Of a DNA stretch of 64,000 bases, positions 8,364-39,515 are shown one piece after another. The DNA is from a virus. The notes beneath the pieces were generated by a model. It was not told where the DNA came from. It made no database searches and saw nothing but the letters and a program-made list of their open reading frames with translations. The DNA is taken from positions 1-64,000 of the IMG/VR virus record IMGVR_UViG_3300045988_108820, one strand, 5' to 3'. Each line of letters begins with the position of its first letter. Positions within the stretch are counted from its first letter, which is position 1. The position numbers and the translations under genes are program-made.

Positions 8364-10535
8364 TTATACACCTTTACTATAAACTCTCTTGTTAGCTTCA
8401 ATCTGCCTGTCTTTACCAAATGACTTGATAGGTCTAAGATAGCCAATTACCCTTGTATATTGAGTTATATTCTTACTATGACACTTTGGACATTCAGTAA
8501 TAGGATGCTTAGTAATGTAACCACAATCATCACACTTACTATTTGGTATATTAAAGGTAAAGTAGTTAGTACCTTCTTTAACTGCAAATTCAATCAACTT
8601 AAGATACTGTTCTTTACTTAAATGGTCTTCAAGATTAATATGACAAGCTGAACCTCCATCACAATATTGTGCTGTCTGCCTTCCATGTAAAATCATCTTA
8701 TCTAGTACTGAAGTATCATCATGAGCATCAAAGAAATATGAGTTATAAAGATTTTCATCTTCAGGAACCCAATAGCCATCCTTTTTATCCCATCTATAGT
8801 TCTTACCACCAAGAGATTCAGCAGGAACTACCTCAGAATTAAACAAGAAAGGTCTCTTACTATCATGTATAGAGTGTAACTTGTTCTGTTCCTTAATAGT
8901 GCCAAGAATCAATTGCAAGAACTTAATATATTCAGAATTATTAGATACCTCAAGACCTAAGAATCTAGCTGCTTCATTCAAGCCATTGATACCAATGGTA
9001 CTATATAACTTGTTCATGTGTATATAGCCACCATTACAAGCTGCAAACATGCCTTTCTCTTCTTGCTCATAAAGCATTGTTTTATATGCTATATGATACT
9101 TATATACTCTTTGGAGAATATCTACTAAGTAATCTATAAGAAACGAAGTATTTTCTTTCCATCCCCCATTTCTCTTTAATCCATAAGCCTTATCACAATC
9201 TTGAACAATCCTATTAATGTTAAGAGTAATTACATTACATGAACCAGTCATTACACCAGTAAGACCTGATGTAGGATTGAAAGTATTCTCCGCAAGTTCA
9301 TTCCTCAACCTACAGCATGATGCAAGACTATCAGCACTATCTGAAATATAAGTGAAGAATGAATGTCCCTCTGCATACATTTCTGCACAAAAGTCCTTAT
9401 ATTCCTTATCTATAATATCTTTGTCATCATGTACCATTGCTAGAGTTTCAACAGGAAAAGTTAAAATCTGCTTAGTTCTAAGTTTATTGAAAAACTTCAT
9501 AAACATCTTCTGAAGAACATTAATTGCAGCCCATTCAGGCTTAGTTCCATCGGGGTAGTAAAACTCTCCAAACAATGAACTAAAGTATGTATGGTCATAA
9601 TAAGATATATTTGTAAATGGACTCTGATATGACCTATTACCAGCAGGTTGATTAATACCATAGATAAACTGTTTGAAAGCTTTCTCTATAAAATCTCTGA
9701 CTGTCCTTTGAGCCTTACAATGAGAATTTGTTACAACACAATCAAGCTTCTCATACCACTTATCTCCAAACTCTGCAATAATGTAATAATTTAGAGCAAT
9801 GAAATATTCTCCAAAGGCTACTGCACCTTTACACTGGGAAGAAAGCAAGAAGGTAAGATTAGTTATTTGTCCACTAAATGATTGTAGGTCATTAGGAGGA
9901 GTGGGTGTTACACCATCTATGTTACCTACACCTTCTGTCATAAGTGGATAAAGAGTATCTGCCTGACAATAGAACTTCAAAGTAGGTACACTAGCTTCAT
10001 CATGAGGATAGATTATATGATTCTCAACATCTATTTCATATTGCTTTGCTACCTCTGGATAAAGAACATTAAGTTCATCCTTCATCCTCTGTCTTTGAAT
10101 AATTCTATTCTTTGTCTTATAAACTTCTCCATCAAGATTGGCAACATTTTTCTGAGTTACATTAGCATTAGAGTCAGTCTCTGAAGAACTAGCAGCATTA
10201 TCATCAGAATCTGCATAGTTAGACATATAATCAATCCTTTCTCTAATAAACCTAGACTCTTCATGTTTACTTCTATAAATAATATAAGCTTTTGCTACAT
10301 CATAAGGTGCTAAATCCATAAGAATCTTCTCTACTTCCATCTGTATAGTAGCAACTCCCACTGTACTAGCTCCTACATGATAAGAGGGAATATAAGTTAA
10401 TTCCTTTAAAACTTCTTCATCAGGCTCTTTACCTTGAGAAGCATAAGCTTTCTTTACAGCATTGATTATTTTATTTAAATCAAATTCCTCAAGTTGACTT
10501 GGTTTACCTTTATTTGTTCTCTTTAGTACTTTCAT
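8364..10535 (-). CDS. nrdD: anaerobic (class III) ribonucleoside-triphosphate reductase
   Basis: N-terminal ATP-cone, C-terminal zinc ribbon CDDCGY...CPKCHS and glycyl-radical motif RVIGYLRP. Confidence 0.9.
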   Translation of the reverse strand: MKVLKRTNKGKPSQLEEFDLNKIINAVKKAYASQGKEPDEEVLKELTYIPSYHVGASTVGVATIQMEVEKILMDLAPYDVAKAYIIYRSKHEESRFIRERIDYMSNYADSDDNAASSSETDSNANVTQKNVANLDGEVYKTKNRIIQRQRMKDELNVLYPEVAKQYEIDVENHIIYPHDEASVPTLKFYCQADTLYPLMTEGVGNIDGVTPTPPNDLQSFSGQITNLTFLLSSQCKGAVAFGEYFIALNYYIIAEFGDKWYEKLDCVVTNSHCKAQRTVRDFIEKAFKQFIYGINQPAGNRSYQSPFTNISYYDHTYFSSLFGEFYYPDGTKPEWAAINVLQKMFMKFFNKLRTKQILTFPVETLAMVHDDKDIIDKEYKDFCAEMYAEGHSFFTYISDSADSLASCCRLRNELAENTFNPTSGLTGVMTGSCNVITLNINRIVQDCDKAYGLKRNGGWKENTSFLIDYLVDILQRVYKYHIAYKTMLYEQEEKGMFAACNGGYIHMNKLYSTIGINGLNEAARFLGLEVSNNSEYIKFLQLILGTIKEQNKLHSIHDSKRPFLFNSEVVPAESLGGKNYRWDKKDGYWVPEDENLYNSYFFDAHDDTSVLDKMILHGRQTAQYCDGGSACHINLEDHLSKEQYLKLIEFAVKEGTNYFTFNIPNSKCDDCGYITKHPITECPKCHSKNITQYTRVIGYLRPIKSFGKDRQIEANKRVYSKGV

Positions 10536-10951
10536 ATTTTATTAATCCAATCTTCAAGTTGGTTGGGATTTACCCTACTTATATTATTTGGAACAGCGGG
10601 TTTGTCCTTTAAATAATGTGATAACTCTTCTCCTATTGTAAATGGGTCTCTAAGGATTATTTGTTTATCCTTTCCAAGTGTTAAATCTCCCTTAGCTTCT
10701 GTTGATCTGAAATTCCATACAAGTGGTGTTAAAGTTTTCTTATTTGCTACTATAAACTTATAAGGAGCTAATTTGAAGTCTTTAAAATATAGATCTTTAT
10801 CCATATTATATCTAATTATTCTCCAATATAATCTAGCTTGAATGTCATAGTGCCACTCTAGGAAACTCTTATAGAAATCCCACTCTGTTTTAGAACTAGT
10901 TTTCAAATCCACAGGGACTACTAATTTCTTATCATGAAATACAATTAATTC
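10532..10951 (-). CDS. PD-(D/E)XK nuclease (RecB/YqaJ-like), exon 2
   Basis: The frame is open upstream of the track start. The inferred exon begins ELIVFHDKKLVVPVDLKTS, which carries the D-x-K of the nuclease motif. Confidence 0.65.
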   Translation of the reverse strand, partial: ELIVFHDKKLVVPVDLKTSSKTEWDFYKSFLEWHYDIQARLYWRIIRYNMDKDLYFKDFKLAPYKFIVANKKTLTPLVWNFRSTEAKGDLTLGKDKQIILRDPFTIGEELSHYLKDKPAVPNNISRVNPNQLEDWINKI

Positions 10952-12061
10952 CAGTTGTGTTATCTTATAGGCTCTTTATCCTATAATTCTACAGTTTCAT
11001 GTATATCTGTAGCTCGGACTATATCTTCATTTTTTCAAATGCTCGGCACTCTTGGGTATATTATATTCTATTTTATAGTTTCAATACCTAGTCTCTGAAC
11101 CTTCACTTTTTTAAAGGTGTGCTTGGCTGCTGATTGTCCCATCGGAGTTTCCAGCAATTCACCGAGTTTTAAGCGAACTCATACTTATTAATATTTGATA
11201 TTTATCATATTTTCTTTTTAAATAAAAATTAGAATCTAAGTATAGCCAATCTAAGATTTTCTTAACTTGATGCCCAGTATAATTAAGGTGATATACATCA
11301 TACTTTGTTTCCTTTCCTAGATAACCATTAGTAAGTGCTTGTTTTGTTATAATAGGTCTAACTTGTTCAAGGAAAACTTTTGATGCAGAAGTTAAATCAA
11401 ATCTACAATGATATATTTTATCTTGAAGTTGTAAACAACCGTCTCCATCAAAGAACCCTCTTATAAAGTGTCTATATAGAGATTTATCAATATTTGGAAA
11501 TTGGATTGTCCTAGTCTTATTAGGAGTACATCCCCAGCTTATTAAGTAATTACAGGATTTTTGAGAACTTACTTCTAAAACATAAGCATCATATCCTCTA
11601 TAAGTAACTTTTCTTATAGGATAATCACATTGTAGACAATCTCTAAATTTCATTATAATATCTTCATCTTTTAATTTTAGATAAAATTTATTTTTAGATA
11701 CACTGCCATCTGAATACATTAACCCTAGAAAATAAGCTTTTGCCTCTGTATCAATATATTCAAAGAAGTTTTCATCTATTAAGTGTCTTCCTACTCTATT
11801 TCTTCTATGCTTTGAATAATCTCTTTTATATATGATTCCTGCACTTCTAATATACTTTAATACTGTACTATTACTATATCCTAATTTTTCTCCTATTTCT
11901 ATAGGTTGCAATCCTTGATTATACAATTCAAGAATTGATTCTAAATTAATAACCTTTATATTCATACCTTTATTTTTAGATATATGTACAAAGGTAATGA
12001 TAATAAATCAAGTATACAAATCTGTAAGTAACTCTATAATGGAATTGTTATAAAGTTTTTA
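10952..12061 (-). mobile_element. group I intron 1 (about 1110 nt) in the nuclease gene
   Basis: Minus-strand core elements in order: P AATTGCTGGAAA (11148-11159), Q AATCAGCAGCC (11125-11135), R GGTTCAGAGACT (11090-11101), S AAGATATAGTCC (11016-11027). The 5' exon ends in U (GAT|taa) and the intron ends ...GATAACACAACTG|. Confidence 0.8.
11159..11965 (-). CDS. intron-encoded LAGLIDADG homing endonuclease with N-terminal HTH
   Basis: Two LAGLIDADG motifs (YFLGLMYSDGSV, FIRGFFDGDGCL); N-terminal HTH (GYSNSTVLKYIRSAG). Confidence 0.85.
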   Translation of the reverse strand: MNIKVINLESILELYNQGLQPIEIGEKLGYSNSTVLKYIRSAGIIYKRDYSKHRRNRVGRHLIDENFFEYIDTEAKAYFLGLMYSDGSVSKNKFYLKLKDEDIIMKFRDCLQCDYPIRKVTYRGYDAYVLEVSSQKSCNYLISWGCTPNKTRTIQFPNIDKSLYRHFIRGFFDGDGCLQLQDKIYHCRFDLTSASKVFLEQVRPIITKQALTNGYLGKETKYDVYHLNYTGHQVKKILDWLYLDSNFYLKRKYDKYQILISMSSLKTR

Positions 12062-26196: not shown

Positions 26197-27297
26197 CAAT
26201 TTTGTTATCATAAAGCTTTTTATCTTTATTTCTTATGCTTCATTTTACATAAGTTCGGCGTACATTTTCACCTTTAACTTAATAGTAAGGGTAGGACACT
26301 CTTGGGTCTATTATATTTATTCAAGACCTACGCTCTACACTACTAATTAACCTTTTGCAATTTAATTAGTTAGCACGGTATTGGCATCTCAGCTTTCACC
26401 GTTTTTGCCCTATAATCATATTAAGAATTTCTTCTTAACACGGCAAATCTATTGTATTTTCTATCTAAATATATAGTAGCATCTTCATATAGAATAGTAG
26501 CAAGCTTATCAGCTTTATCACAAGAGCAACTAATACTATAAGTGTTGCTAGTACTCCTTTTATTTCTAGCTACCTTTCCTGTAAAGAACTCAGGAAAATA
26601 ATTAATAATTCCATCTAGAAACTCTTTAGTTCCAATAATTTCAATTACTAATCTACCTGTTTTAGTATATGTTAAGCACCCATCCCCATCAATATACCCC
26701 CTTATAAAATCCTTGATTAATCCTGTATTTTTGAATATACTTTTATCAGGGAATTTTAGTATTAGAGATTTTCTAGGAATACACCCTAATTCAATTAGTC
26801 TATCATGGAAGTGCTTATCTGTAGCATTAAATCTACATCTTTGATAAGCCTTTCCATTACATCTAGAATTAGACAGCTTCACTTCATTCCTACTCTCTAA
26901 GAACTCTTTGAATTTTTGCAGATGCTCTTTATCTACACTAGCTAATGATAATTCTACTTGATTATCTCTTGCAGAGATACTTCCATCAGCATATAAGAAT
27001 CCTAGCCAATAAGCTTTCTCCTCAGTATCAATACTATCAAAAATTTTGTTGTTAAATTTTAGTTCATTATGATAGTTGTGAAGATTAATGCCTAGCTTTC
27101 TTAATTTCCTGTGTACTGTAGAATAATCTAAATTCAATATAGAACTTATCTCTTTTCCTGTCTTTCTTTTCTGAACTAGCTTTAATAATTCAGATGTTAC
27201 TTCTCTGTATTTGCCCATAATATTTGTAGTTTATTTGGCAAAGGCACAGATAATTATTTAGATATGCAATAGGTTAAGTAAATTACTTAACTATTTT
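26197..27297 (-). mobile_element. group I intron 4 (about 1101 nt) in the helicase gene
   Basis: The 3' end GATAACAAAATTG| matches introns 1-3. 5' exon ends GGT|. The core is diverged but shares the GGACACTCTTGGG block with intron 1. Confidence 0.6.
26421..27218 (-). CDS. intron-encoded LAGLIDADG homing endonuclease with HTH
   Basis: YWLGFLYADGSI and FIRGYIDGDGCL; N-terminal HTH LNLDYSTVHRKLRKLG. Confidence 0.85.
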   Translation of the reverse strand: MGKYREVTSELLKLVQKRKTGKEISSILNLDYSTVHRKLRKLGINLHNYHNELKFNNKIFDSIDTEEKAYWLGFLYADGSISARDNQVELSLASVDKEHLQKFKEFLESRNEVKLSNSRCNGKAYQRCRFNATDKHFHDRLIELGCIPRKSLILKFPDKSIFKNTGLIKDFIRGYIDGDGCLTYTKTGRLVIEIIGTKEFLDGIINYFPEFFTGKVARNKRSTSNTYSISCSCDKADKLATILYEDATIYLDRKYNRFAVLRRNS

Positions 27298-28815: not shown

Positions 28816-28929
28816 AGCTACTTAATTGATACATTATCAGTGTATTGCATTAACCACTATGCTAATCATCCATCTTTATGAGAATAATATAGGACTCGAA
28901 CCTATGAAATAATAGTATTGTAAGTAGCT
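28816..28929 (-). ncRNA. cassette f: circularly permuted tRNA-like RNA clamped by a 9-bp terminal stem
   Basis: Minus-strand order: AGCUACUUA-CAAUACUAUUAUUUC, then T arm ATAGG-TTCGAGT-CCTAT, 3' acceptor ATTATTC, T, a 9-nt linker, 5' acceptor GGATGAT, TA, D arm GCAT-AGTGGTTA-ATGC, anticodon arm ATACA-CTGATAA-TGTAT, CAAT, and UAAGUAGCU. Confidence 0.55.
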
Positions 28930-28979
28930 CAAATGCAGTAAAATATAAAATTTTACTATATGAAAGAAAGTAAGTTATT

Positions 28980-29040
28980 GGCACTGATATTATCCCTATA
29001 ATATAAATAAACATTGTAACCAATGTGTTTTGTAAGTGCC
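28980..29040 (-). repeat. cassette e: ACUUACAA-core hairpin unit (stem GGCACU/AGUGCC)
   Basis: Inverted repeat ggcact (28980-85) / agtgcc (29035-40), plus an inner hairpin ACATTG/CAATGT. Confidence 0.5.
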
Positions 29041-29045
29041 AAAAG

Positions 29046-29153
29046 CGGGGAAGGTAGGACTCGAACCTACATTTGATAGTTTATGAAATCTATTGCTTAT
29101 TATTAGTGTTGTAAGTATCCATGATACTATTAAACCATTTTAGCTACTTCCCC
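29046..29153 (-). ncRNA. cassette d: tRNA-like gene with an internal insertion of about 31 nt carrying the ACUUACAA core
   Basis: Perfect acceptor GGGGAAG/CTTCCCC, D arm GCTA-AAATGGTTTAA-TAGT and T arm GTAGG-TTCGAGT-CCTAC. There are 54 nt between the D and T arms, including hairpin AGTATC-ATG-GATACT and an ATAG-(A)TTTCATAA(A)-CTAT arm. Confidence 0.5.
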
Positions 29154-29164
29154 TTGTTGTTTAT

Positions 29165-29264
29165 AGTTACTTAATAATGTATGTTAGATTTGAACTAACT
29201 GTCTTTGAATTATAAATTCAACGCTTTACCAAATAAGCTAATACTATTAGTATTGTAAGTAACT
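29165..29264 (-). ncRNA. cassette c: tRNA-Ile(UAU)-like module inside a 9-bp leader/trailer clamp
   Basis: Clamp AGUUACUUA/UAAGUAACU. Inside (29175..29247): D arm GCTT-ATTTGGTA-AAGC, anticodon arm TTGAA-TTTATAA-TTCAA, T arm GTTAG-TTCAAAT-CTAAC. The acceptor pairs only 5 of 7. Confidence 0.5.
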
Positions 29265-29275
29265 TATATGTCTAT

Positions 29276-29339
29276 AGACACTAAAAAATCATAATACACA
29301 AATCCAAATTTAATTTTAGAGATTATATTGTAAGTGTCT
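29276..29339 (-). repeat. cassette b: ACUUACAA-core hairpin unit (stem AGACACU/AGUGUCU)
   Basis: Inverted repeat agacact (29276-82) / agtgtct (29333-39). Confidence 0.5.
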
Positions 29340-29347
29340 TTGAGTAA

Positions 29348-29381
29348 ATATAGGAGGTATTACTCCTCCTATATTTTTTTA
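29348..29381. terminator. strong hairpin, possibly a bidirectional terminator
   Basis: 10-bp stem ATATAGGAGG/CCTCCTATAT with a T7 run on the plus side and an A7 run on the other side; about 100 nt downstream of the vWA gene stop. Confidence 0.5.
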
Positions 29382-29401
29382 TTGATATTAAACTAATTAT
29401 T

Positions 29402-29456
29402 GATACTAAACTAAAATTAAATGCTTCAAGAAATTAATATATTAATTGTAAGTATC
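29402..29456 (-). repeat. cassette a: ACUUACAA-core hairpin unit (stem GAUACU/AGUAUC)
   Basis: Inverted repeat gatact (29402-07) / agtatc (29451-56). Confidence 0.45.
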
Positions 29457-29471
29457 AGTTATTATGCTTAG

Positions 29472-31298
29472 TTAAAGTACATTTTCCTTTACTATATCAT
29501 ATCTATTGCTCCTAAACAAAGATTGTAAAGGAGTATAAACATCCATAATATCCATATCTTTGAAGTTAGTTAAGAACTGCTCAATCTGTGCTACATTAGC
29601 AGGGATATAAATCATATTCTCAATACCTTCAAATCTATTGATAGAAGTACTTCTAAAACCCCAACCACCATCTACATCAATAGCTACAATGTAGGGTTTA
29701 AATCCAAAGTATCTTTGACATTTCATCATAAAACTATTCATTGAAGCTTCAGGAGATGGAAATGAGTTCCATTCACCATCACTAATAATAGTCCATACAG
29801 GATAATTCTTCAGAGCATCAAGTATTTGAGGATTACGCTGACATTCCAAATGTAAAGTATCTGGAATTTTATCAATATAAGTACAACCACCTTGGAATAC
29901 TGCATTACAGAAACTCTTAATAGATTGATAATTGTCATAGAAGCTCTTCTTAGGGTCAACAAATGGAGTTTGCTTAATCTTTACTGCGTTACTTCTAATG
30001 AGAGAGTTTGCAGAAGTAGCTTTTCTATCTATACAAGTATGCCAATGACTGTTACTATTGAAGAAACCAAGTAAGTTTCTACCATCATCATCTGGATTCT
30101 TACATAGACATACAGAAGCCAAGAATGAAGCAAAGTTAAAGGGTTTACCTCTCATAGAACCTGAATCATCTATAATTACAAGACTATTATAAGGAAGATT
30201 AACCTTAGTCATGAATGTTTCAAGCTTTAGTTTATCTACATTGCCATAGCAAATATCATTGTACAGCTCTTTGAAGTTAGTTGCACCTGTATTAACCTTA
30301 GCCTGCTTTGCAACTTTCCTTAACTTGATTTTATCTTCCTCTGTAGCTTGTCCCTGTCTAACTTTTTCCTCTAGAACTCTTTGTTCAGTTTGTTTAGATT
30401 CTTTATATCTCTCCCATTCAGTAAGCCAAGGTTGGAACTTAGAATATTTATCCTTCTCAGTATCTTTAATCTTACTATAAAGGATTCTGTTCTTAACTCT
30501 AAACCTTGCTTGTGAAGGAAGTTTGTCAAACCAATCAATAAATGACTGTTTATCAAACTCATTAATTTTACCTGTAGAAAATAGTACTGACTCAAGGTTA
30601 CCATTATAATCCTTTCTCCACTTTCTATAGCCTTTGAAGTTAGCATAGCCCTCATTTACTTCATACTCCCAACCCATAAGTTCTGAGAGCATTATAAGTA
30701 ACTTGATCTTATCTTCCATTACCTTTTTAGTTTCAGGAAGCATCTTGCTATGACCACTTCTCTTACCTACTCTAGGAAGTGTTAGAAATTTAGCAACAAG
30801 AGTTTTATTAAAAGGATTACTACCATTGATAACTTTATAGAGATAGTTTGCAATAACCTCTCTATATTTTGCTTCAGCAAAGAGATTATGTATTCTAATA
30901 ACTCTAGAACCTTTAGTTTGTACTCTATTTCTAAACAGCAAGTCAAAGCAAGTATATTCATTGAACAAACCTGCTTCAAGGAATTTTACAAATTGAGTTT
31001 GGTGTTTATTCCACATCCAATTAAGAACTACTTGAAAACCCTCTCTATTAGCATTACCACCACTGTCTTTTTTAACACCTTTAAAGATGTTATGTTGTCT
31101 AGCTGTAATATCTCCAATTGAAAAGAGTAAACTAAAGAACATTTTTCTTTTTTCTTTGTCATTCTTAACCTCTAACCAACAAGCATCTAGTAATGATGTA
31201 TCAATTGCATTACATACATTTTGGAAGAGTTTAAGACAATTTTTTAATCCATAAAAAGGATTATTGTTACTTTTGCTATTTAATTTAACTTGTACCAT
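29472..31298 (-). CDS. helical N-domain (DUF2828-like) plus vWA/MIDAS protein; Ro60-like architecture
   Basis: MIDAS motif D-x-S-x-S in SLVIIDDSGSMRG at about residue 375. The N-terminal FFSLLFSIGDITARQ...GGNANREGFQVVLNWMW resembles the remembered DUF2828 pattern (FylRdiR.GkGER..F...l.wL). Confidence 0.6.
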   Translation of the reverse strand: MVQVKLNSKSNNNPFYGLKNCLKLFQNVCNAIDTSLLDACWLEVKNDKEKRKMFFSLLFSIGDITARQHNIFKGVKKDSGGNANREGFQVVLNWMWNKHQTQFVKFLEAGLFNEYTCFDLLFRNRVQTKGSRVIRIHNLFAEAKYREVIANYLYKVINGSNPFNKTLVAKFLTLPRVGKRSGHSKMLPETKKVMEDKIKLLIMLSELMGWEYEVNEGYANFKGYRKWRKDYNGNLESVLFSTGKINEFDKQSFIDWFDKLPSQARFRVKNRILYSKIKDTEKDKYSKFQPWLTEWERYKESKQTEQRVLEEKVRQGQATEEDKIKLRKVAKQAKVNTGATNFKELYNDICYGNVDKLKLETFMTKVNLPYNSLVIIDDSGSMRGKPFNFASFLASVCLCKNPDDDGRNLLGFFNSNSHWHTCIDRKATSANSLIRSNAVKIKQTPFVDPKKSFYDNYQSIKSFCNAVFQGGCTYIDKIPDTLHLECQRNPQILDALKNYPVWTIISDGEWNSFPSPEASMNSFMMKCQRYFGFKPYIVAIDVDGGWGFRSTSINRFEGIENMIYIPANVAQIEQFLTNFKDMDIMDVYTPLQSLFRSNRYDIVKENVL

Positions 31299-31330
31299 CT
31301 TATTAATATTTATTATTATTTGTAAGTAAC
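31266..31330 (-). promoter_or_regulatory. cassette g: ACUUACAA core on the vWA gene leader, with a 6-bp stem enclosing the start codon
   Basis: Minus strand GUUACUUACAAAUAAUAAUAAAUAUUAAUAAG-AUG-...AGCAAAAGUAAC; arms gttact (31266-71) / agtaac (31325-30); ATG at 31298. Confidence 0.4.
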
Positions 31331-33164: not shown

Positions 33165-33179
33165 TGTTAATTTAATTAG

Positions 33180-33263
33180 TACAGGAAGTGGGACTTGAAC
33201 CCACACGTTCTAATGAACATCAGAGCTTAAATCTGAGGTGTCTACCAATTCCACCATTCCTGC
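33180..33263 (-). tRNA. tRNA-Leu(UAA), type II
   Basis: Acceptor GCAGGAA/TTCCTGT, anticodon arm TCAGA-TTTAAGC-TCTGA, long variable arm, T arm GTGGG-TTCAAGT-CCCAC. Confidence 0.8.
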
Positions 33264-33289
33264 AATACATAAAAATAAATAATAATTTG

Positions 33290-33360
33290 AGTCATGTGTG
33301 GGAATTGAACCCACGAATCAACATTGGAAGTGTTGCATTTTACCACTAAACTAACATGAC
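33290..33360 (-). tRNA. tRNA-Gly(UCC)
   Basis: Acceptor GTCATGT/ACATGAC, anticodon arm CAACA-CTTCCAA-TGTTG, T arm GTGGG-TTCAATT-CCCAC. Confidence 0.85.
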
Positions 33361-33562
33361 ATATAGTTAATAATGCAAAGTTAATAATAATTTTATATGT
33401 AACAAAGTTTTAATTGAAAAGCTTAAGTAAATAAAGTAGAAAACCACTCTATCTTCACAGACCGAGTAGTACACATCATTGAAATATTTAAAAAACAAAT
33501 GTATTAGATTTCTTTTATAACTAACATTTACACATAACTAAACTATAAATAACTTTTATTAG

Positions 33563-33633
33563 CTGATCTTATTGGAGTTGAACCAATATCTATAGTTTTG
33601 GAGACTATTGTTTTACCGTTAAACTAAAGACCA
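33563..33633 (-). tRNA. tRNA-Trp(CCA)
   Basis: Acceptor TGGTCTT/AAGATCA, D arm GTTT/AAAC, anticodon arm ATAGT-CTCCAAA-ACTAT, T arm ATTGG-TTCAACT-CCAAT. Confidence 0.8.
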
Positions 33634-33897
33634 GTTAAATAGGACAACCACTTAACCTATTATGGTACGATAAGTTTTTTTAATTACTCGCAGGGACGTA
33701 CTTTCAACTTAAACCCCGAAGTGGAAATTTTTATTTAGTTTTTATAATAATTAGTAATAATTTCAAAATCCTTTAAATTACTATACCTGGCTTCTATAAT
33801 AGTCATGCCAAAATACTTACTGAAATGTTTAGCGATTTTAATTGTTTCATAATAATTTAATTGATTTAGTTATTAATAAATGGTTAATTGTTTTGAG

Positions 33898-33971
33898 TAC
33901 TCCTTGTAGGACTTGAACCTACGACTCCCAAGGTATAAGCTTGGTGCTCTAACCGACTGAACTAAAGGAGT
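33898..33971 (-). tRNA. tRNA-Ile(UAU)
   Basis: Acceptor ACTCCTT/AAGGAGT, anticodon arm CCAAG-CTTATAC-CTTGG, T arm GTAGG-TTCAAGT-CCTAC. Confidence 0.8.
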
Positions 33972-34223
33972 AATTATAAACCTCTCAAGAGTACTATTTT
34001 TAATAATTAATTTAACTATTAAAACTTGAGAGGTTTAAGTCAAACAGAGATACAATTAATAAAAGAATTTAATAAGAATAAATTACAGCTCATCTACATC
34101 TATCTGTTGATTTTGATATTTTAAAGTAATAAAATATCTCAGGGTTACTGACTTTTATTCACTACTATTAACCCTTTTTCGCTTAAATTCTTTTATCTTT
34201 AAAACTTTAGACTATTATTTCTA

Positions 34224-34418
34224 CTAAAGGTTGTCCCAGTAATGTTCATAATTACTATTTAATTCTTTCTCAATAAGTATAGCATCTTGAAGATAAGCTT
34301 TTAAAAATTGCGAACAATCATCAAATGAATTAATATTTCCTTCAAATTCAATATTTAACCATTGTTCACAATATTTTATATCTTCTCTTTGCTTTTCTGT
34401 TGATTTAAGAAGTCTCAT
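34224..34418 (-). CDS. hypothetical protein (64 aa)
   Basis: Intact ORF between tRNA blocks. Confidence 0.45.
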   Translation of the reverse strand: MRLLKSTEKQREDIKYCEQWLNIEFEGNINSFDDCSQFLKAYLQDAILIEKELNSNYEHYWDNL

Positions 34419-34423
34419 CGTAA

Positions 34424-34732
34424 TTATAATTTTAATAACCTTTTAATTTTAGTCCATAATGAGCACTTTATAGATTTACTTTGTATGCCTTTGCCTGACT
34501 TTCTATTATTATAGATAGCATTTGGACTAACTACCATAAATGAAACTTTTAATTTTGAGGGATCTTTAGAAGGAGCTAGTACTTGATACCAATGTATTCT
34601 ACAAGCAGCTTCTGTCCTATTTAGATCTTTACTTACTTCCCTAAAAGCTTTATTAATGTTTTGAGGATAGGCTTCTATAGCCTGGACTAAAACTTTGTTT
34701 TCCTCATCAGTCCAATACTTTCTTTTTGTCAT
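34424..34732 (-). CDS. Myb/SANT-like DNA-binding domain protein
   Basis: YWTDEENKVLVQAIEAY...RTEAACRIHWYQVL fits the W..eE...L....G..W......RT...C..RW repeat pattern. Confidence 0.55.
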   Translation of the reverse strand: MTKRKYWTDEENKVLVQAIEAYPQNINKAFREVSKDLNRTEAACRIHWYQVLAPSKDPSKLKVSFMVVSPNAIYNNRKSGKGIQSKSIKCSLWTKIKRLLKL

Positions 34733-34768
34733 ACTTTATTACTTTGTTTCTTGTTTTTATTTATTTTG

Positions 34769-34840
34769 TACCCCTAGTAAGACTCGAACTTACATTTCAA
34801 GTTTAGGAAACTTGAGTTCTATCCTTTGAACTATAGGAGT
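34769..34840 (-). tRNA. tRNA-Arg(CCU)
   Basis: Acceptor ACTCCTA/TAGGGGT, anticodon arm CAAGT-TTCCTAA-ACTTG, T arm GTAAG-TTCGAGT-CTTAC. Confidence 0.8.
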
Positions 34841-34846
34841 TAATAG

Positions 34847-34920
34847 TCTTCCCAGTGAGACTCGAACTCACAACTTATGCTTTAGAAGAGCATTACTCTA
34901 ATCCATTGAGTTATGGGAAG
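34847..34920 (-). tRNA. tRNA-Arg(UCU)
   Basis: Acceptor CTTCCCA/TGGGAAG, anticodon arm ATGCT-CTTCTAA-AGCAT, T arm GTGAG-TTCGAGT-CTCAC. Confidence 0.85.
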
Positions 34921-34923
34921 ATA

Positions 34924-35038
34924 GTGCAGAGATTAGACTAAAAAATACTTAGTGCATTCTACTATGCTATCCATTCTATTGGCACAGGAGTTTGTCACCT
35001 GTTCTCTAAGTATTAGTTTTAGAAAAGAATCTCTGCAC
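34924..35038. ncRNA. 115-nt rod-like structured element (nested inverted repeats) within the tRNA block
   Basis: Outer 11-bp arms GTGCAGAGATT/AATCTCTGCAC, then CTAAAA/TTTTAG, TACTTAG/CTAAGTA, and an inner hairpin ACAGG-AGTTTGTCA-CCTGT. No ORF. Confidence 0.45.
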
Positions 35039-35170
35039 ATGGCACGTGAATTTGTAATTTATAGGCAATACTAGACCTATAAATTTTGGTTCTACCTTTT
35101 ATTGTACAATTATTTTGATAGCCTGGAATTATTTGGATTTGGTAATTATAGTATTCTATTCCACCCATGT

Positions 35171-35242
35171 GGGCTAGTAGAGGATTGAACTCTAAACCTT
35201 CACAGTATCAGTGTGATGCTCTAACCAATTGAGCTACTAGCC
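35171..35242 (-). tRNA. tRNA-Ile(GAU)
   Basis: Acceptor GGCTAGT/ACTAGCC, anticodon arm TCACA-CTGATAC-TGTGA, T arm AGAG(T)-TTCAATC-CTCT. Confidence 0.85.
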
Positions 35243-35343
35243 TATAATGCTATTGTTTCACAACAACAGCATTAATAAAACAGTATTAACAACCAAAACA
35301 GTATTAATAAGACAAATTAACTTTAATGAAACCTACATAGATT

Positions 35344-37949: not shown

Positions 37950-38021
37950 GGAGCCATCATCTAATGGTTAGGATACAAGATTTTCAACCTTGAAATAGGG
38001 GTTCAATTCCCCTTGGCTCTT
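37950..38021 (+). tRNA. tRNA-Glu(UUC)
   Basis: Acceptor GGAGCCA/TGGCTCT, anticodon loop TTTTCAA (31-39 A.C mismatch), T arm AGGGG-TTCAATT-CCCCT. Confidence 0.75.
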
Positions 38022-38026
38022 CAATA

Positions 38027-38098
38027 GACTATGAAGTGTAATGGTTTTGCATACCACACTGTCAATGTGGTGGATGGGGTTCAATTCCCCCATAGTCT
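38027..38098 (+). tRNA. tRNA-Asp(GUC)
   Basis: Acceptor GACTATG/CATAGTC, anticodon arm CCACA-CTGTCAA-TGTGG, T loop TTCAATT. Confidence 0.75.
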
Positions 38099-38101
38099 GC
38101 T

Positions 38102-38296
38102 ATGATAAAAATATTAAGAAAGGAGGGTTGGATATTAAACCCTAATGATAAAATAGTAAATGCTATTTTAAAAAGAGTAGAATTAAATAATGGAGAGTGT
38201 CCTTGTCAAAATGATAGTAGTGATAAGCATTGTCCATGTACAGATTATAGAGATAAAAACTTATGTCATTGTAATCTCTATATCAAGTCAGAGTAA
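38102..38296 (+). CDS. ferredoxin-thioredoxin reductase catalytic-subunit-like small Cys protein
   Basis: CPCQ...CPC...CHCNLY spacing matches the FTR beta-chain CPC/CPC/CHC signature. Confidence 0.55.
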   Translation: MIKILRKEGWILNPNDKIVNAILKRVELNNGECPCQNDSSDKHCPCTDYRDKNLCHCNLYIKSE

Positions 38297-38319
38297 TATC
38301 TACTCTAGAACTAACTAAG

Positions 38320-38391
38320 GGGTGAGTGATGTAATTGGTAACATACTTCCTTTGCAAGGAAGAATTAAGGGTTCAAATCCCTCTTGCTCCA
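38320..38391 (+). tRNA. tRNA-Ala(UGC)
   Basis: D arm ATGT-AATTGGTA-ACAT, anticodon arm CTTCC-TTTGCAA-GGAAG, T loop TTCAAAT. The acceptor register is ambiguous (one register gives G3.U70). Confidence 0.7.
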
Positions 38392-38553
38392 CAATATTAA
38401 CTATAATTTATTAATATGAAAAAGATTTTATCTTTATTTAAAAGGGGACTTAATGCCTATTTAAATGCATTAGCTAAATGTCCTTATGTACCGTCAGGAA
38501 CTATCCCAATGGGAGTTTAGTTCCTTTAATTTAGAATTAATACTATAATATAT

Positions 38554-38626
38554 TGGCATATAGTATAAAGGTTTATTACGATTGACTGTTAATCAATGAA
38601 TCAAGGTTCGAGTCCTTGTATGCCAG
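38554..38626 (+). tRNA. tRNA-Asn(GUU)
   Basis: Acceptor TGGCATA/TATGCCA, anticodon arm ATTGA-CTGTTAA-TCAAT, T arm CAAGG-TTCGAGT-CCTTG. Confidence 0.85.
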
Positions 38627-38647
38627 CATAGAAAAATAATATATAAT

Positions 38648-38878
38648 ATGTGGTTATTGGAAAGTAATAGATCTAAACACCTACTTTATGCAATACCTTC
38701 AGCCTATATAGGTACTATATTATTTAGTACTGGTTTAGCTTTTGGTATGGAGTTTAAAGATAAACAATATGGTGGTAAATTTGATTGGCTTGATATAGCT
38801 GCTACTATGATAGGTGGTATAGTTGGTCAATTATTGCAGGTTAGTATGATAAGTTTAATCTATTTAACATTTAATTAA
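38648..38878 (+). CDS. small membrane protein (76 aa)
   Basis: Two hydrophobic helices (IGTILFSTGLAFG, IAATMIGGIVGQLLQV). Confidence 0.45.
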   Translation: MWLLESNRSKHLLYAIPSAYIGTILFSTGLAFGMEFKDKQYGGKFDWLDIAATMIGGIVGQLLQVSMISLIYLTFN

Positions 38879-38979
38879 TATGGAAGCACTTAATGTTATA
38901 ATTGGTATTGTAGGTAATGCAATAGTACTAGGTCTTATGTATTATTTTCTGGTAAAAAAGAAAGAATAATACTTAGGAT

Positions 38980-39065
38980 GCCTCCATGTTGGAATTAGTA
39001 GACAAGTTAGACTTAAAATCTAATAATCAGTAATGATTATGTGGGTGCAAGTCCCACTGGAGGTA
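38980..39065 (+). tRNA. tRNA-Leu(UAA), type II (second copy, opposite strand to 33180..33263)
   Basis: Acceptor GCCTCCA/TGGAGGT, anticodon arm TTAGA-CTTAAAA-TCTAA, long variable arm, T arm GTGGG-TGCAAGT-CCCAC. Confidence 0.8.
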
Positions 39066-39132
39066 CTATAGCAGCTCTTGAAGGGTGTAGAAAAGCATAG
39101 ACTTACTAGACTATTTAGACAATCTGCTATAA

Positions 39133-39215
39133 ACCCACTTGCTGGAATTGGTAGACAGGCTAGACTTAGGATCTAGTATCTAAATGATGTAAGAGTTCAA
39201 GTCTCTTAGTGGGTA
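39133..39215 (+). tRNA. tRNA-Leu(UAG), type II
   Basis: Acceptor ACCCACT/AGTGGGT, anticodon arm CTAGA-CTTAGGA-TCTAG, T arm AGAG(T)-TTCAAGT-CTCT. Confidence 0.8.
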
Positions 39216-39247
39216 CTAAAAATAATTATAAAAAACTTATAAAAAAG

Positions 39248-39278
39248 TTTGTAATTTCAAATAAATTACTTATCTTTG
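39248..39278 (+). promoter_or_regulatory. canonical Bacteroidota-type promoter in front of tRNA-Thr/Met
   Basis: TTTG (39248-51), a 19-nt spacer, then TATCTTTG (39271-78); the tRNA starts 15 nt downstream. Confidence 0.6.
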
Positions 39279-39292
39279 TAATTGTTGAAGAT

Positions 39293-39364
39293 GGTCTCTT
39301 AGTATAAAGGTTAATATCCTTGCTTTGTAACCAAGGGATGTAAGTTCGATTCTTACAGGGACCT
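39293..39364 (+). tRNA. tRNA-Thr(UGU)
   Basis: Acceptor GGTCTCT/AGGGACC, anticodon loop TTTGTAA with a 31-39 C.C mismatch, T arm GTAAG-TTCGATT-CTTAC. Confidence 0.7.
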
Positions 39365-39370
39365 CAATAT

Positions 39371-39443
39371 ACAGGGATGTTAGCAGTGGTAGCTAGTTAG
39401 CCTCATAAGCTAAAGGTCGTGGGTTCGACTCCCACTCCCTGAA
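39371..39443 (+). tRNA. tRNA-Met(CAU) (or Ile2/initiator type; acceptor register irregular)
   Basis: D arm TAGC-AGTGGTA-GCTA, anticodon arm TTAGC-CTCATAA-GCTAA, T arm GTGGG-TTCGACT-CCCAC. The top of the acceptor stem is mismatched. Confidence 0.7.
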
Positions 39444-39515
39444 CAAATTAAAATTAATAAATATATCTTCTTTGAAGAATACTTTATCTAGTGTATCATA
39501 TATAAAAATAACACT

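Follow-up and report, generated by a model that had tools for sequence, protein, structure and literature searches.

YrlA RNAs, found in bacteria and in phages, carry a conserved motif near their 5' end, held in a stem with the 3' end; between the two strands of that stem come first a V stem, which is optional, then the T arm, an acceptor-like stem ending in a loop, and finally the D arm (Chen et al., 2014; PMC4201824). They are encoded beside the gene for Ro60 (Rsr), and the YrlA RNA of M. smegmatis is reported to be cut by RNase P and to have CCA added to it (PMC4201824). Ro60 homologues and Y-like RNAs are also known in mycobacteriophages, CcrColossus, phage G and the Thermus phage phiLo (PMC12135203; PMC4201824; PMC7824862). 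Here we describe U6, a 114-nt segment with this architecture at positions 28816-28929, minus strand, of a 64,000-nt stretch of crAss-like phage DNA (IMG/VR record IMGVR_UViG_3300045988_108820, positions 1 to 64,000; the window). In the human gut no viruses are more abundant than the crAss-like phages, and the greater part of their genes and non-coding regions is without an assigned function.

U6 combines the YrlA architecture with a different recognition motif and an added anticodon arm. We consider it probable, with moderate confidence, that it is a Y-RNA/YrlA-type RNA: its closing stem and motif would be bound by a Ro60-like protein of 608 amino acids (aa) encoded next to it, its tRNA-like domain would engage tRNA-binding factors, and the protein would regulate its own synthesis through a copy of the motif in its 5' untranslated region (UTR). 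An initial annotation had taken the segment for a circularly permuted tRNA-like RNA, either a permuted or split tRNA as in red algae or archaea or a Y-RNA-style tRNA mimic, and knew of neither in a phage of this kind. The literature searched likewise holds no report of Ro60 or Y RNAs for crAss-like phages and none of a permuted tRNA in phages, Y RNAs and Ro60 homologues being known from the other phages named above.

Architecture of U6 and its likeness to YrlA RNAs

The elements listed in the initial annotation are all present, at the minus-strand places it gave. Together with the segments between them they are, from 5' to 3':

28816-28929, minus strand: U6 as a whole, a full tRNA cloverleaf in circularly permuted order, with the break at the variable region and a 9-bp clamp closing it (from sequence, minimum free energy (MFE) fold, rotated ARAGORN call and covarying homologues)
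28921-28929, minus strand: clamp 5' strand AGCTACTTA (RNA AGCUACUUA), the start of the conserved motif
28906-28920, minus strand: linker CAAUACUAUUAUUUC, the unpaired tail of the motif, at the place of the YrlA V region
28889-28905, minus strand: T arm ATAGG-TTCGAGT-CCTAT (RNA AUAGG-UUCGAGU-CCUAU)
28865-28888, minus strand: acceptor-like stem-loop, AUUAUUC, 10-nt loop UCAUAAAGAU, GGAUGAU (3' acceptor strand ATTATTC 28888-28882, connector 28881-28872, GGATGAT 28871-28865)
28864-28863, minus strand: U8-A9 ahead of the D arm
28847-28862, minus strand: D arm GCAT-AGTGGTTA-ATGC (RNA GCAU-AGUGGUUA-AUGC)
28829-28845, minus strand: anticodon arm ATACA-CTGATAA-TGTAT (RNA AUACA-CUGAUAA-UGUAU), anticodon GAU at 28838-28836; hypervariable and dispensable in relatives
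28816-28824, minus strand: clamp 3' strand TAAGTAGCT (RNA UAAGUAGCU)

GGATGAT pairs with ATTATTC at seven of seven positions, two of them G.U, and the clamp 5' strand AGCUACUUA with the 8 nt that follow it makes up the motif AGNYACUUACAAWAYYA. The MFE structure from RNAfold recovers the clamp, the T arm, the acceptor hairpin and the D arm, at a z-score of only -1.8. ARAGORN calls no tRNA in native, unrotated U6; the check on the rotated sequence that the initial annotation had asked for beforehand yields, with the clamp removed, tRNA-Ile(GAU) in 37 of 40 junction variants (all variable loops of at least 2 nt). The Rfam tRNA model reaches 29.1 bits on U6, aligning to the 5' half only and skipping the T arm. 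By itself, this single copy is weak evidence, and 9-bp inverted repeats within 150 nt are frequent in AT-rich DNA, at about 140 per window by our estimate; U6 stands above chance because of the rotated ARAGORN call, its recurrence in 30 covarying units and a 43:5 ratio of G.U to A.C in those units. "Permuted cloverleaf" is an accurate description of U6. An exact search of IMG/VR with 43 nt of the U6 5' half gave no match. We also considered U6 as a recent duplicate of the window's own tRNA-Ile(GAU) at 35243-35169 and rejected this, the two sequences being unrelated.

The likeness to YrlA extends over several features: firstly, the ends are paired and the 5' strand bears a conserved motif; secondly, the interior order is the same, with tRNA-like T and D loops; thirdly, the adjoining gene encodes a protein of predicted ring-type, helical and vWA/MIDAS architecture; and fourthly, more than one RNA is encoded per locus, again in phages. 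The Rfam YrlA model RF02553 aligns over its full length (1-114) to units of relatives, with 46.2 bits (E 3.6e-7) at locus L095, 45.3 bits at L067 and 29.7 bits at L078, and the E values of such matches range from 3.6e-7 to 0.02. Between the two kinds of RNA that the initial annotation had put forward, the arm order of YrlA (PMC4201824), these model matches and the Ro60-like adjoining gene speak for the Y-RNA-style mimic. U6 and its array also differ from YrlA. The array motif is AGNYACUUACAAWAYYA rather than GNCGAAN0-1G or CGAA, the neighbouring protein lacks a detectable TROVE sequence signature, and the window copy has an extra, full anticodon arm that makes it a complete permuted cloverleaf. 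Each locus has from six to about twelve modules; the stem is found as well on whole tRNAs, inside tRNA-like genes and in the protein's own 5' UTR; and the crAss-like phages are a new host group.

In INPHARED, the region is matched only by uncultured phage cr116_1 and IAS virus, which share 70-75% identity with a part of the upstream open reading frame (ORF). Loci of relatives were gathered via the upstream protein from IMG/VR and other assemblies, and two further searches by RNA pattern alone added arrays from more distant phages, with many permuted units that have 9/9 clamps; many loci returned by a two-motif pattern search were unrelated tandem repeats and were set aside. For covariation we used 30 distinct permuted units from related contigs, parsed by their T-loop anchor. 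Units with fewer than 6 acceptor pairs or fewer than 7 clamp pairs were left out, so that the raw percentages below are inflated; what counts is the contrast with shuffled partners and the number of different helices:

Acceptor: 95.7% paired against 57% shuffled; 25 distinct helices, 3-6 pair types per position
T stem: 99.3% paired against 77% shuffled; 16 distinct helices
D stem: 86.7% paired against 64.5% shuffled; 13 distinct helices
Anticodon stem (present in 16 of the 30 units): 100% paired against 59% shuffled; 12 distinct helices
Clamp: 94.4% paired against 83.6% shuffled (maximum 87.4%); 18 distinct helices

All five helices of the permuted units covary. Compensatory change is plain in the acceptor, where GGAUGAU/AUUAUUC of the window corresponds to AGAUGAU/AUUAUCU in L001, GGAUGAU/AUUAUCC in L002 and GGUAGAU/AUUUACC in L068, with further compensatory changes in L004. 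Non-Watson-Crick positions in the 30 units comprise 43 G.U and 5 A.C, and in the T stem, for which no selection of partners was made, 9 G.U and 0 A.C; with G.U in such excess, the structure forms in RNA made from the minus strand. A T loop of the form UUCRANY, a D loop bearing GG, and U8 occur in the window (UUCGAGU, AGUGGUUA and U8-A9) and in all 30 units, and the MFE fold of the L001 homologue consists of exactly the clamp, T arm, acceptor hairpin and D arm.

The permuted order has precedents among tRNAs. Permuted tRNA genes of Cyanidioschyzon merolae, some green algae and Thermofilum pendens, and the split tRNAs of Nanoarchaeum, likewise place the 3' half before the 5' half; in these too a helix joins the termini, and rotation of U6 restores a full cloverleaf. 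Such tRNAs need a bulge-helix-bulge motif, a splicing endonuclease and a ligase, and they yield essential decoding tRNAs. The array units differ from them in having no bulge-helix-bulge, in having the break either in the variable region or where the anticodon loop would be, in having a dispensable anticodon arm, and in a bacterial host. The termini of U6 form an uninterrupted 9-bp helix, the clamps of relatives are likewise plain helices, and in neither did sequence, fold or parsed units give a bulge-helix-bulge motif.

U6 might nevertheless be a genuine permuted or split gene for a decoding tRNA, in which RNase P and 3' processing with CCA addition would open the acceptor loop and the halves would either be held together by the clamp as a two-piece tRNA or be cut and ligated. 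The ARAGORN call of tRNA-Ile on the full, rotated cloverleaf fits this, as do the canonical anticodon loop, C/U32-U33-NNN-R37, in all 16 units with the arm and the GCCA that five permuted units (L004, L067, L079, L082 and L084) encode within the acceptor loop, right behind the 3' acceptor strand. The reported RNase P cleavage and CCA tailing of M. smegmatis YrlA (PMC4201824) would be in line with it, and one relative has a UCA anticodon, in a group of phages among which stop-codon recoding is reported for the beta members, in some cases where no suppressor tRNA could be detected (PMC7886860). (A UCA anticodon would read the UGA stop codon.)

The variation among close relatives argues the other way. 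When the window was compared with L002, L003, L004, L005 and L100, the U6 anticodon of these six was of five kinds (GAU, UUU, GUU, GUC and UCA). Almost all variation fell in the anticodon, the outer acceptor pairs, the connector and T-loop positions 57 and 59, with only a handful of single-base differences at other sites; within the anticodon arm, the remaining 14 nt do not differ. In L001, L026, L027 and L056, also close relatives, the anticodon arm is deleted. Several permuted units have an acceptor loop of only 2-4 nt, which leaves no space for a discriminator and a leader, and discriminator bases, by our reading, do not track anticodon identity rules. No splicing endonuclease or RNA ligase was found among the seven neighbouring ORFs scanned. 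With a plain 9-bp clamp in addition, we regard a permuted decoding tRNA as unlikely for U6, and the permuted or split tRNA of the initial annotation is not supported, given the missing bulge-helix-bulge, the deleted arms and the short acceptor loops; a two-piece tRNA made by RNase P and CCA addition keeps a small probability.

An array of modules with a common stem

U6, read as a YrlA-like RNA, does not stand alone. It is the last of six modules at 28816-29456 on the minus strand, an array that lies directly 3' of the 608-aa gene and on the same strand as it, and in which AGNYACUUACAAWAYYA (a consensus from 150 distinct occurrences in related arrays) is paired to UAAGURNCU. From 5' to 3', the modules and remnants ahead of U6 are:

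29402-29456, minus strand: U1, clamp GAUACUUA/UUAGUAUC, no tRNA cargo; begins 16 nt past the stop codon of the 608-aa gene
29346-29376, no strand assigned: 12-bp hairpin separating U1 from U2; conserved in all relatives, where its stem covaries
29276-29339, minus strand: U2, clamp AGACACUUA/UUAGUGUCU, no tRNA cargo; in L005 and L068 it has a tRNA inside
29165-29264, minus strand: U3, tRNA-Ile(UAU) at 29247-29175 within the clamp AGUUACUUA/UAAGUAACU (ARAGORN; Rfam 58.9 bits)
29046-29153, minus strand: U4, tRNA-like GGGGAAG...CUUCCCC with an internal clamp hairpin AGUAUC-AUG-GAUACUUACAA; same module in relatives
28980-29040, minus strand: U5 remnant GGCACUUA ... UCAGUGCC, which contains GGGATAAT; the tRNA cargo of relatives is largely deleted
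28931-28979, minus strand: U7 remnant, mostly deleted here; in relatives (comparison with L001-L005) a tRNA-like gene with the clamp as an internal hairpin, placed before U6

The core ACTTACAA occurs in six copies on the minus strand between 28918 and 29453, and 11 times in the whole window against 4.9 expected, a count reached in no shuffle. In each module, the bases before ACUUA are complementary to those after UAAGU or UUAGU, and this partner lies downstream in all except U4. There the complementary strand stands immediately upstream of the motif, so that the hairpin comes to lie within the tRNA-like gene, in a 28-nt insert; the T arm of U4 is intact and its CAU anticodon loop has 8 nt. (For the U5 tRNA of L001 and L005, ARAGORN likewise gives 8-nt 'tttg' anticodon loops.) The U3 clamp shows a compensatory change in relatives, AGUCACU/AGUGACU, and the U3 anticodon varies among them as UAU, UGU, GGU or CAU. 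A pairing of the motif tail AAUACU with the U3 5' acceptor strand, seen in one MFE fold, was rejected, as it is not conserved in relatives. Read on the plus strand, antisense to the array, the U1-U2 hairpin has the score of an intrinsic terminator; on the coding strand it has no T-run. No known self-cleaving ribozyme or intron in the array matched Rfam at E<10.

Arrays of relatives usually have at least 7 modules, up to about 12 in 1.6 kb in L068. Across them, the stem tag takes four topologies: it surrounds whole, high-scoring tRNAs; it forms a hairpin within the D loop or the anticodon loop of tRNA-like genes; it closes permuted units, either at the variable region, as in the window, or in place of the anticodon loop; and it stands alone with no cargo. 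(In L097, a tRNA with an external clamp ends in ...A-CCA right before the clamp 3' strand.) The variable anticodon, the deletable arm, the encoded GCCA and these mixed topologies do not fit a stable decoding tRNA. As speculation, such variation would suit a mimic whose tRNA "identity" faces changing selection.

Modules with an internal hairpin recall the tRNA-like domain of transfer-messenger RNA (tmRNA) and other tRNA mimics, in which an acceptor stem and T arm are likewise combined with a large insertion between. The Rfam tmRNA model matches such modules weakly, at 15-25 bits (L068, L074, L078 and L097), far under its cut-off, and the modules differ from tmRNA in having neither an mRNA-like reading frame nor pseudoknots. 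The resemblance is limited to the split tRNA-like ends. Separately, L078 has a full-length tmRNA match at 10334-10723 on the minus strand (73 bits, against a gathering score of 47), some 3 kb away from the array of that contig.

The U5 remnant bears on a further possibility raised by the initial annotation, that the T-arm half of U6 belongs to a conventional tRNA with the upstream GGATAAT (29003) as its 5' acceptor. This GGATAAT is the GGGATAAT of the U5 remnant and lies in its tail. It precedes the U5 3' clamp strand and has no counterpart in relatives, and a conventional tRNA with a long insert is rejected on these grounds; no D or anticodon arm lies between the two halves, and ARAGORN and Rfam are silent on the combination.

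The U5 and U7 remnants could also suggest that U6 is debris, the 3' end of one decayed tRNA gene fused to the 5' part of a second through recombination at repeated motifs, with no function of its own. The array is indeed in flux, since the U5 cargo and U7 are deleted in the window and module content differs between relatives, and the fold of the window copy has the modest z-score given above. Yet the permuted arrangement is kept in lineages where the adjacent protein is only ~70% identical or less, the helix sequences there being different and the pairing intact. The asymmetry of G.U and A.C, the YrlA model matches in relatives and the failure of GGATAAT as a partner point the same way, and the covariation of the units contradicts debris as an origin, which we hold to be very unlikely.

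The adjacent 608-aa protein and the motif copy at its start codon

The candidate partner of the array and the motif copy in its mRNA are:

29472-31298, minus strand: gene for the 608-aa protein, a helical N-terminal domain and a C-terminal vWA domain with an invariant MIDAS; candidate binder of the clamp motif
31266-31330, minus strand: copy of the clamp motif in the mRNA of the 608-aa gene, GUUACUUACAA at -32; putative autoregulatory operator

The protein belongs to a family of 162 representatives at 50% identity. It has no Pfam or PHROG match, and phmmer against the PDB was negative. In an alignment of 55 diverse homologues the MIDAS residues D377, S379, S381, T473 and D507 are invariant, and 21 of the 55 give a weak match to VWA_2. 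An AlphaFold2 (AF2) model built from this alignment (pLDDT 89, pTM 0.84) consists of a helical domain, formed by the first ~365 residues, and then a vWA fold; built on a shallow alignment, an earlier AF2 model had been of low quality (pLDDT 71) and returned only vWA and HEAT-like matches. With the better model, the top Foldseek match in the PDB, and the only full-length one, was Ro (Rsr) of Deinococcus radiodurans (2nvo; E 1e-5, 630 columns), and one of the BFVD matches, from Gordonia phage VanLee, is annotated 'Ro-like RNA binding protein'. When PDB sequences were searched with a profile, there were weak matches to the TROVE proteins 9l5y and 9kop (E 0.02) and to Ro60. By hhalign, the family aligned to a TROVE-family alignment built from phiLo Ro60 with a probability of 97.7% (E 1.4e-12), covering only the vWA domain and the preceding helices. 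A 64-aa Ro60 fragment used as query gave no matches. The modelled architecture of the protein thus appears Ro60-like, and homology of its N-terminal domain to TROVE is not demonstrated. The closest BFVD matches, annotated VWFA or DUF7788, come from giant viruses (Pithovirus, CroV) and other phages, with Ro-like proteins lower in the list.

The gene and the array keep company across lineages. Among loci found by RNA pattern alone, a family gene lies directly beside the array on the same strand in L073, L074, L078, L083, L088, L092, L095, L096, L097 and L025, and on the same strand with the array 0.5-3.5 kb off in L075 and L079; where such loci have no family gene, the contig is too short on the relevant side.

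A copy of the motif also surrounds the start of the gene itself. In GUUACUUACAA, GUUACUU (31330-31324) pairs with AAGUAAC (31272-31266, codons 9-11), and the start codon (31298-31296) lies in the enclosed loop. About 25 loci conserve this pairing. In those with other N-terminal residues, the partner is displaced and covaries, as in L025 (UUUUCACUU/AAGUGAAAA); in L084 the pair GGACACUU/AAGUGUCC lies wholly in the 5' UTR, and in L074 the partner is likewise in the 5' UTR. The Ser-Asn pair is always encoded AGU-AAC, although these make up 28% and 37% of Ser and Asn codons in these genes. An RNA-binding protein whose own target is copied around its initiation site is the classic arrangement for translational autoregulation. 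From the sequence, the stem around the start codon suggests such autoregulation, and the operator-like copy lends indirect support to binding of the clamp motif by the protein.

The position of this copy is relevant to another account, in which ACTTACAA is a phage promoter or an RNase processing signal before each tRNA or tRNA-like gene, the vWA protein is unrelated, and the RNAs are ordinary or odd phage tRNAs with their leaders. The 17-nt motif does head every unit and precedes the ORF's ATG by ~30 nt, where a promoter would be expected; T-runs follow the 3' clamp strands in L067, and several units with external clamps enclose high-scoring normal tRNAs. A promoter, however, needs no partner, whereas the 2-5 variable bases before ACUUA covary with one 45-190 nt away, and inside the ORF that partner is maintained by the choice of synonymous codons. 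In units of the U4 and U7 type the motif is a hairpin inside the tRNA-like gene; it does not occur in either of the ordinary tRNA clusters of the window (33-35 kb and 38-39.4 kb); and the arrays are strictly adjacent to one protein family across lineages. On this evidence a promoter or processing signal is a rather unlikely explanation.

The reading that we favour, a Y-RNA-type ribonucleoprotein, would work as follows. The 114-nt segment would give a small structured RNA of the YrlA/Y-RNA type with its ends closed by the 9-bp stem, whose 5' strand carries AGNYACUUACAAWAYYA as the conserved recognition motif. Between the strands lies a tRNA-shaped domain of T arm, loop-closed acceptor-like stem and D arm, with the extra anticodon arm in the window phage. 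The sequences show the fold, its covariation and its formation in RNA of this strand, as well as the common motif, the linkage of gene and array and the operator-like copy; from these we infer that the 608-aa protein binds the closing stem and motif of every module, so that the tRNA-like domain would be displayed to tRNA-binding factors, either enzymes or host tRNA-targeting nucleases; binding of the same stem at its own start codon would limit the protein's translation.

A number of results weigh against this Y-RNA reading. On the side of the protein, the TM score to Rsr in Foldseek is low (0.28-0.32), and the closest structures in BFVD are uncharacterised vWA/DUF7788 proteins, with TM scores of 0.5-0.6. 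The N-terminal domain alone has no profile similarity to TROVE by hhalign (E 0.85), and neither the window protein nor any of the 55 homologues matches Pfam TROVE (PF05731), which the control, phiLo Ro60, does match. Similarity of one vWA domain to another is not in itself specific to Ro60. Among the neighbouring ORFs scanned there is no gene for an RNA ligase, RtcB or PNPase. On the side of the RNA, the units of relatives fall below the RF02553 gathering cut-off of 69 bits, U6 of the window gives nothing with that model at E<10, and the published Rsr-binding motif GNCGAAN0-1G is absent from the units, with AGNYACUUACAAWAYYA in its place; for these three reasons we do not file U6 under RF02553. 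The conserved 17-nt motif could moreover be, or overlap, a phage promoter.

If the Y-RNA reading holds, the locus would give crAss-like phages a ribonucleoprotein of the Y-RNA/Ro60 type, with four properties beyond those described for known Y RNAs: a recognition motif that is new; a partner too divergent for sequence-based detection of TROVE, its nearest predicted structures being viral proteins annotated vWA or DUF7788; one stem tag shared by whole tRNAs and the mRNA of the protein itself; and a switching of anticodons between near-identical phages. The literature searched holds no earlier account of the motif AGNYACUUACAAWAYYA, of multi-topology arrays or of the operator copy. Counts of tRNAs and searches for suppressors in crAss-like phages would miss a class of tRNA-shaped RNAs.

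A bolder version, which we put forward very tentatively and with a small chance of being right, is that of a crAss-like, Ro60-like ribonucleoprotein in which one protein, through a common stem tag in several topologies, carries a changing set of tRNAs and mimics that serve as decoys or sensors for host tRNA-targeting nucleases, or as two-piece recoding tRNAs. The fastest-varying sites, namely the anticodon, the outer acceptor pairs and the connector, would fit decoys or sensors of tRNA-targeting defence nucleases, or two-piece recoding tRNAs.

Ordinary tRNA genes and other features of the window

The two ordinary tRNA clusters lie on opposite strands, at 33179-35243 (minus) and 37950-39444 (plus). 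ARAGORN gives 15 tRNA genes, and a 16th in the array (29175-29247); the clusters include duplicated Leu(UAA) and Ile(UAU), plus Ile(GAU). Two further features of the window are:

10995-11233, minus strand: group I catalytic intron (Rfam RF00028, 67.2 bits, gathering score 50)
26421-27218, minus strand: 265-aa ORF with a match to PHROG 4645 'endonuclease' (E 3e-56) and weak ones to LAGLIDADG and HNH homing endonucleases, ~1.6 kb downstream of the array

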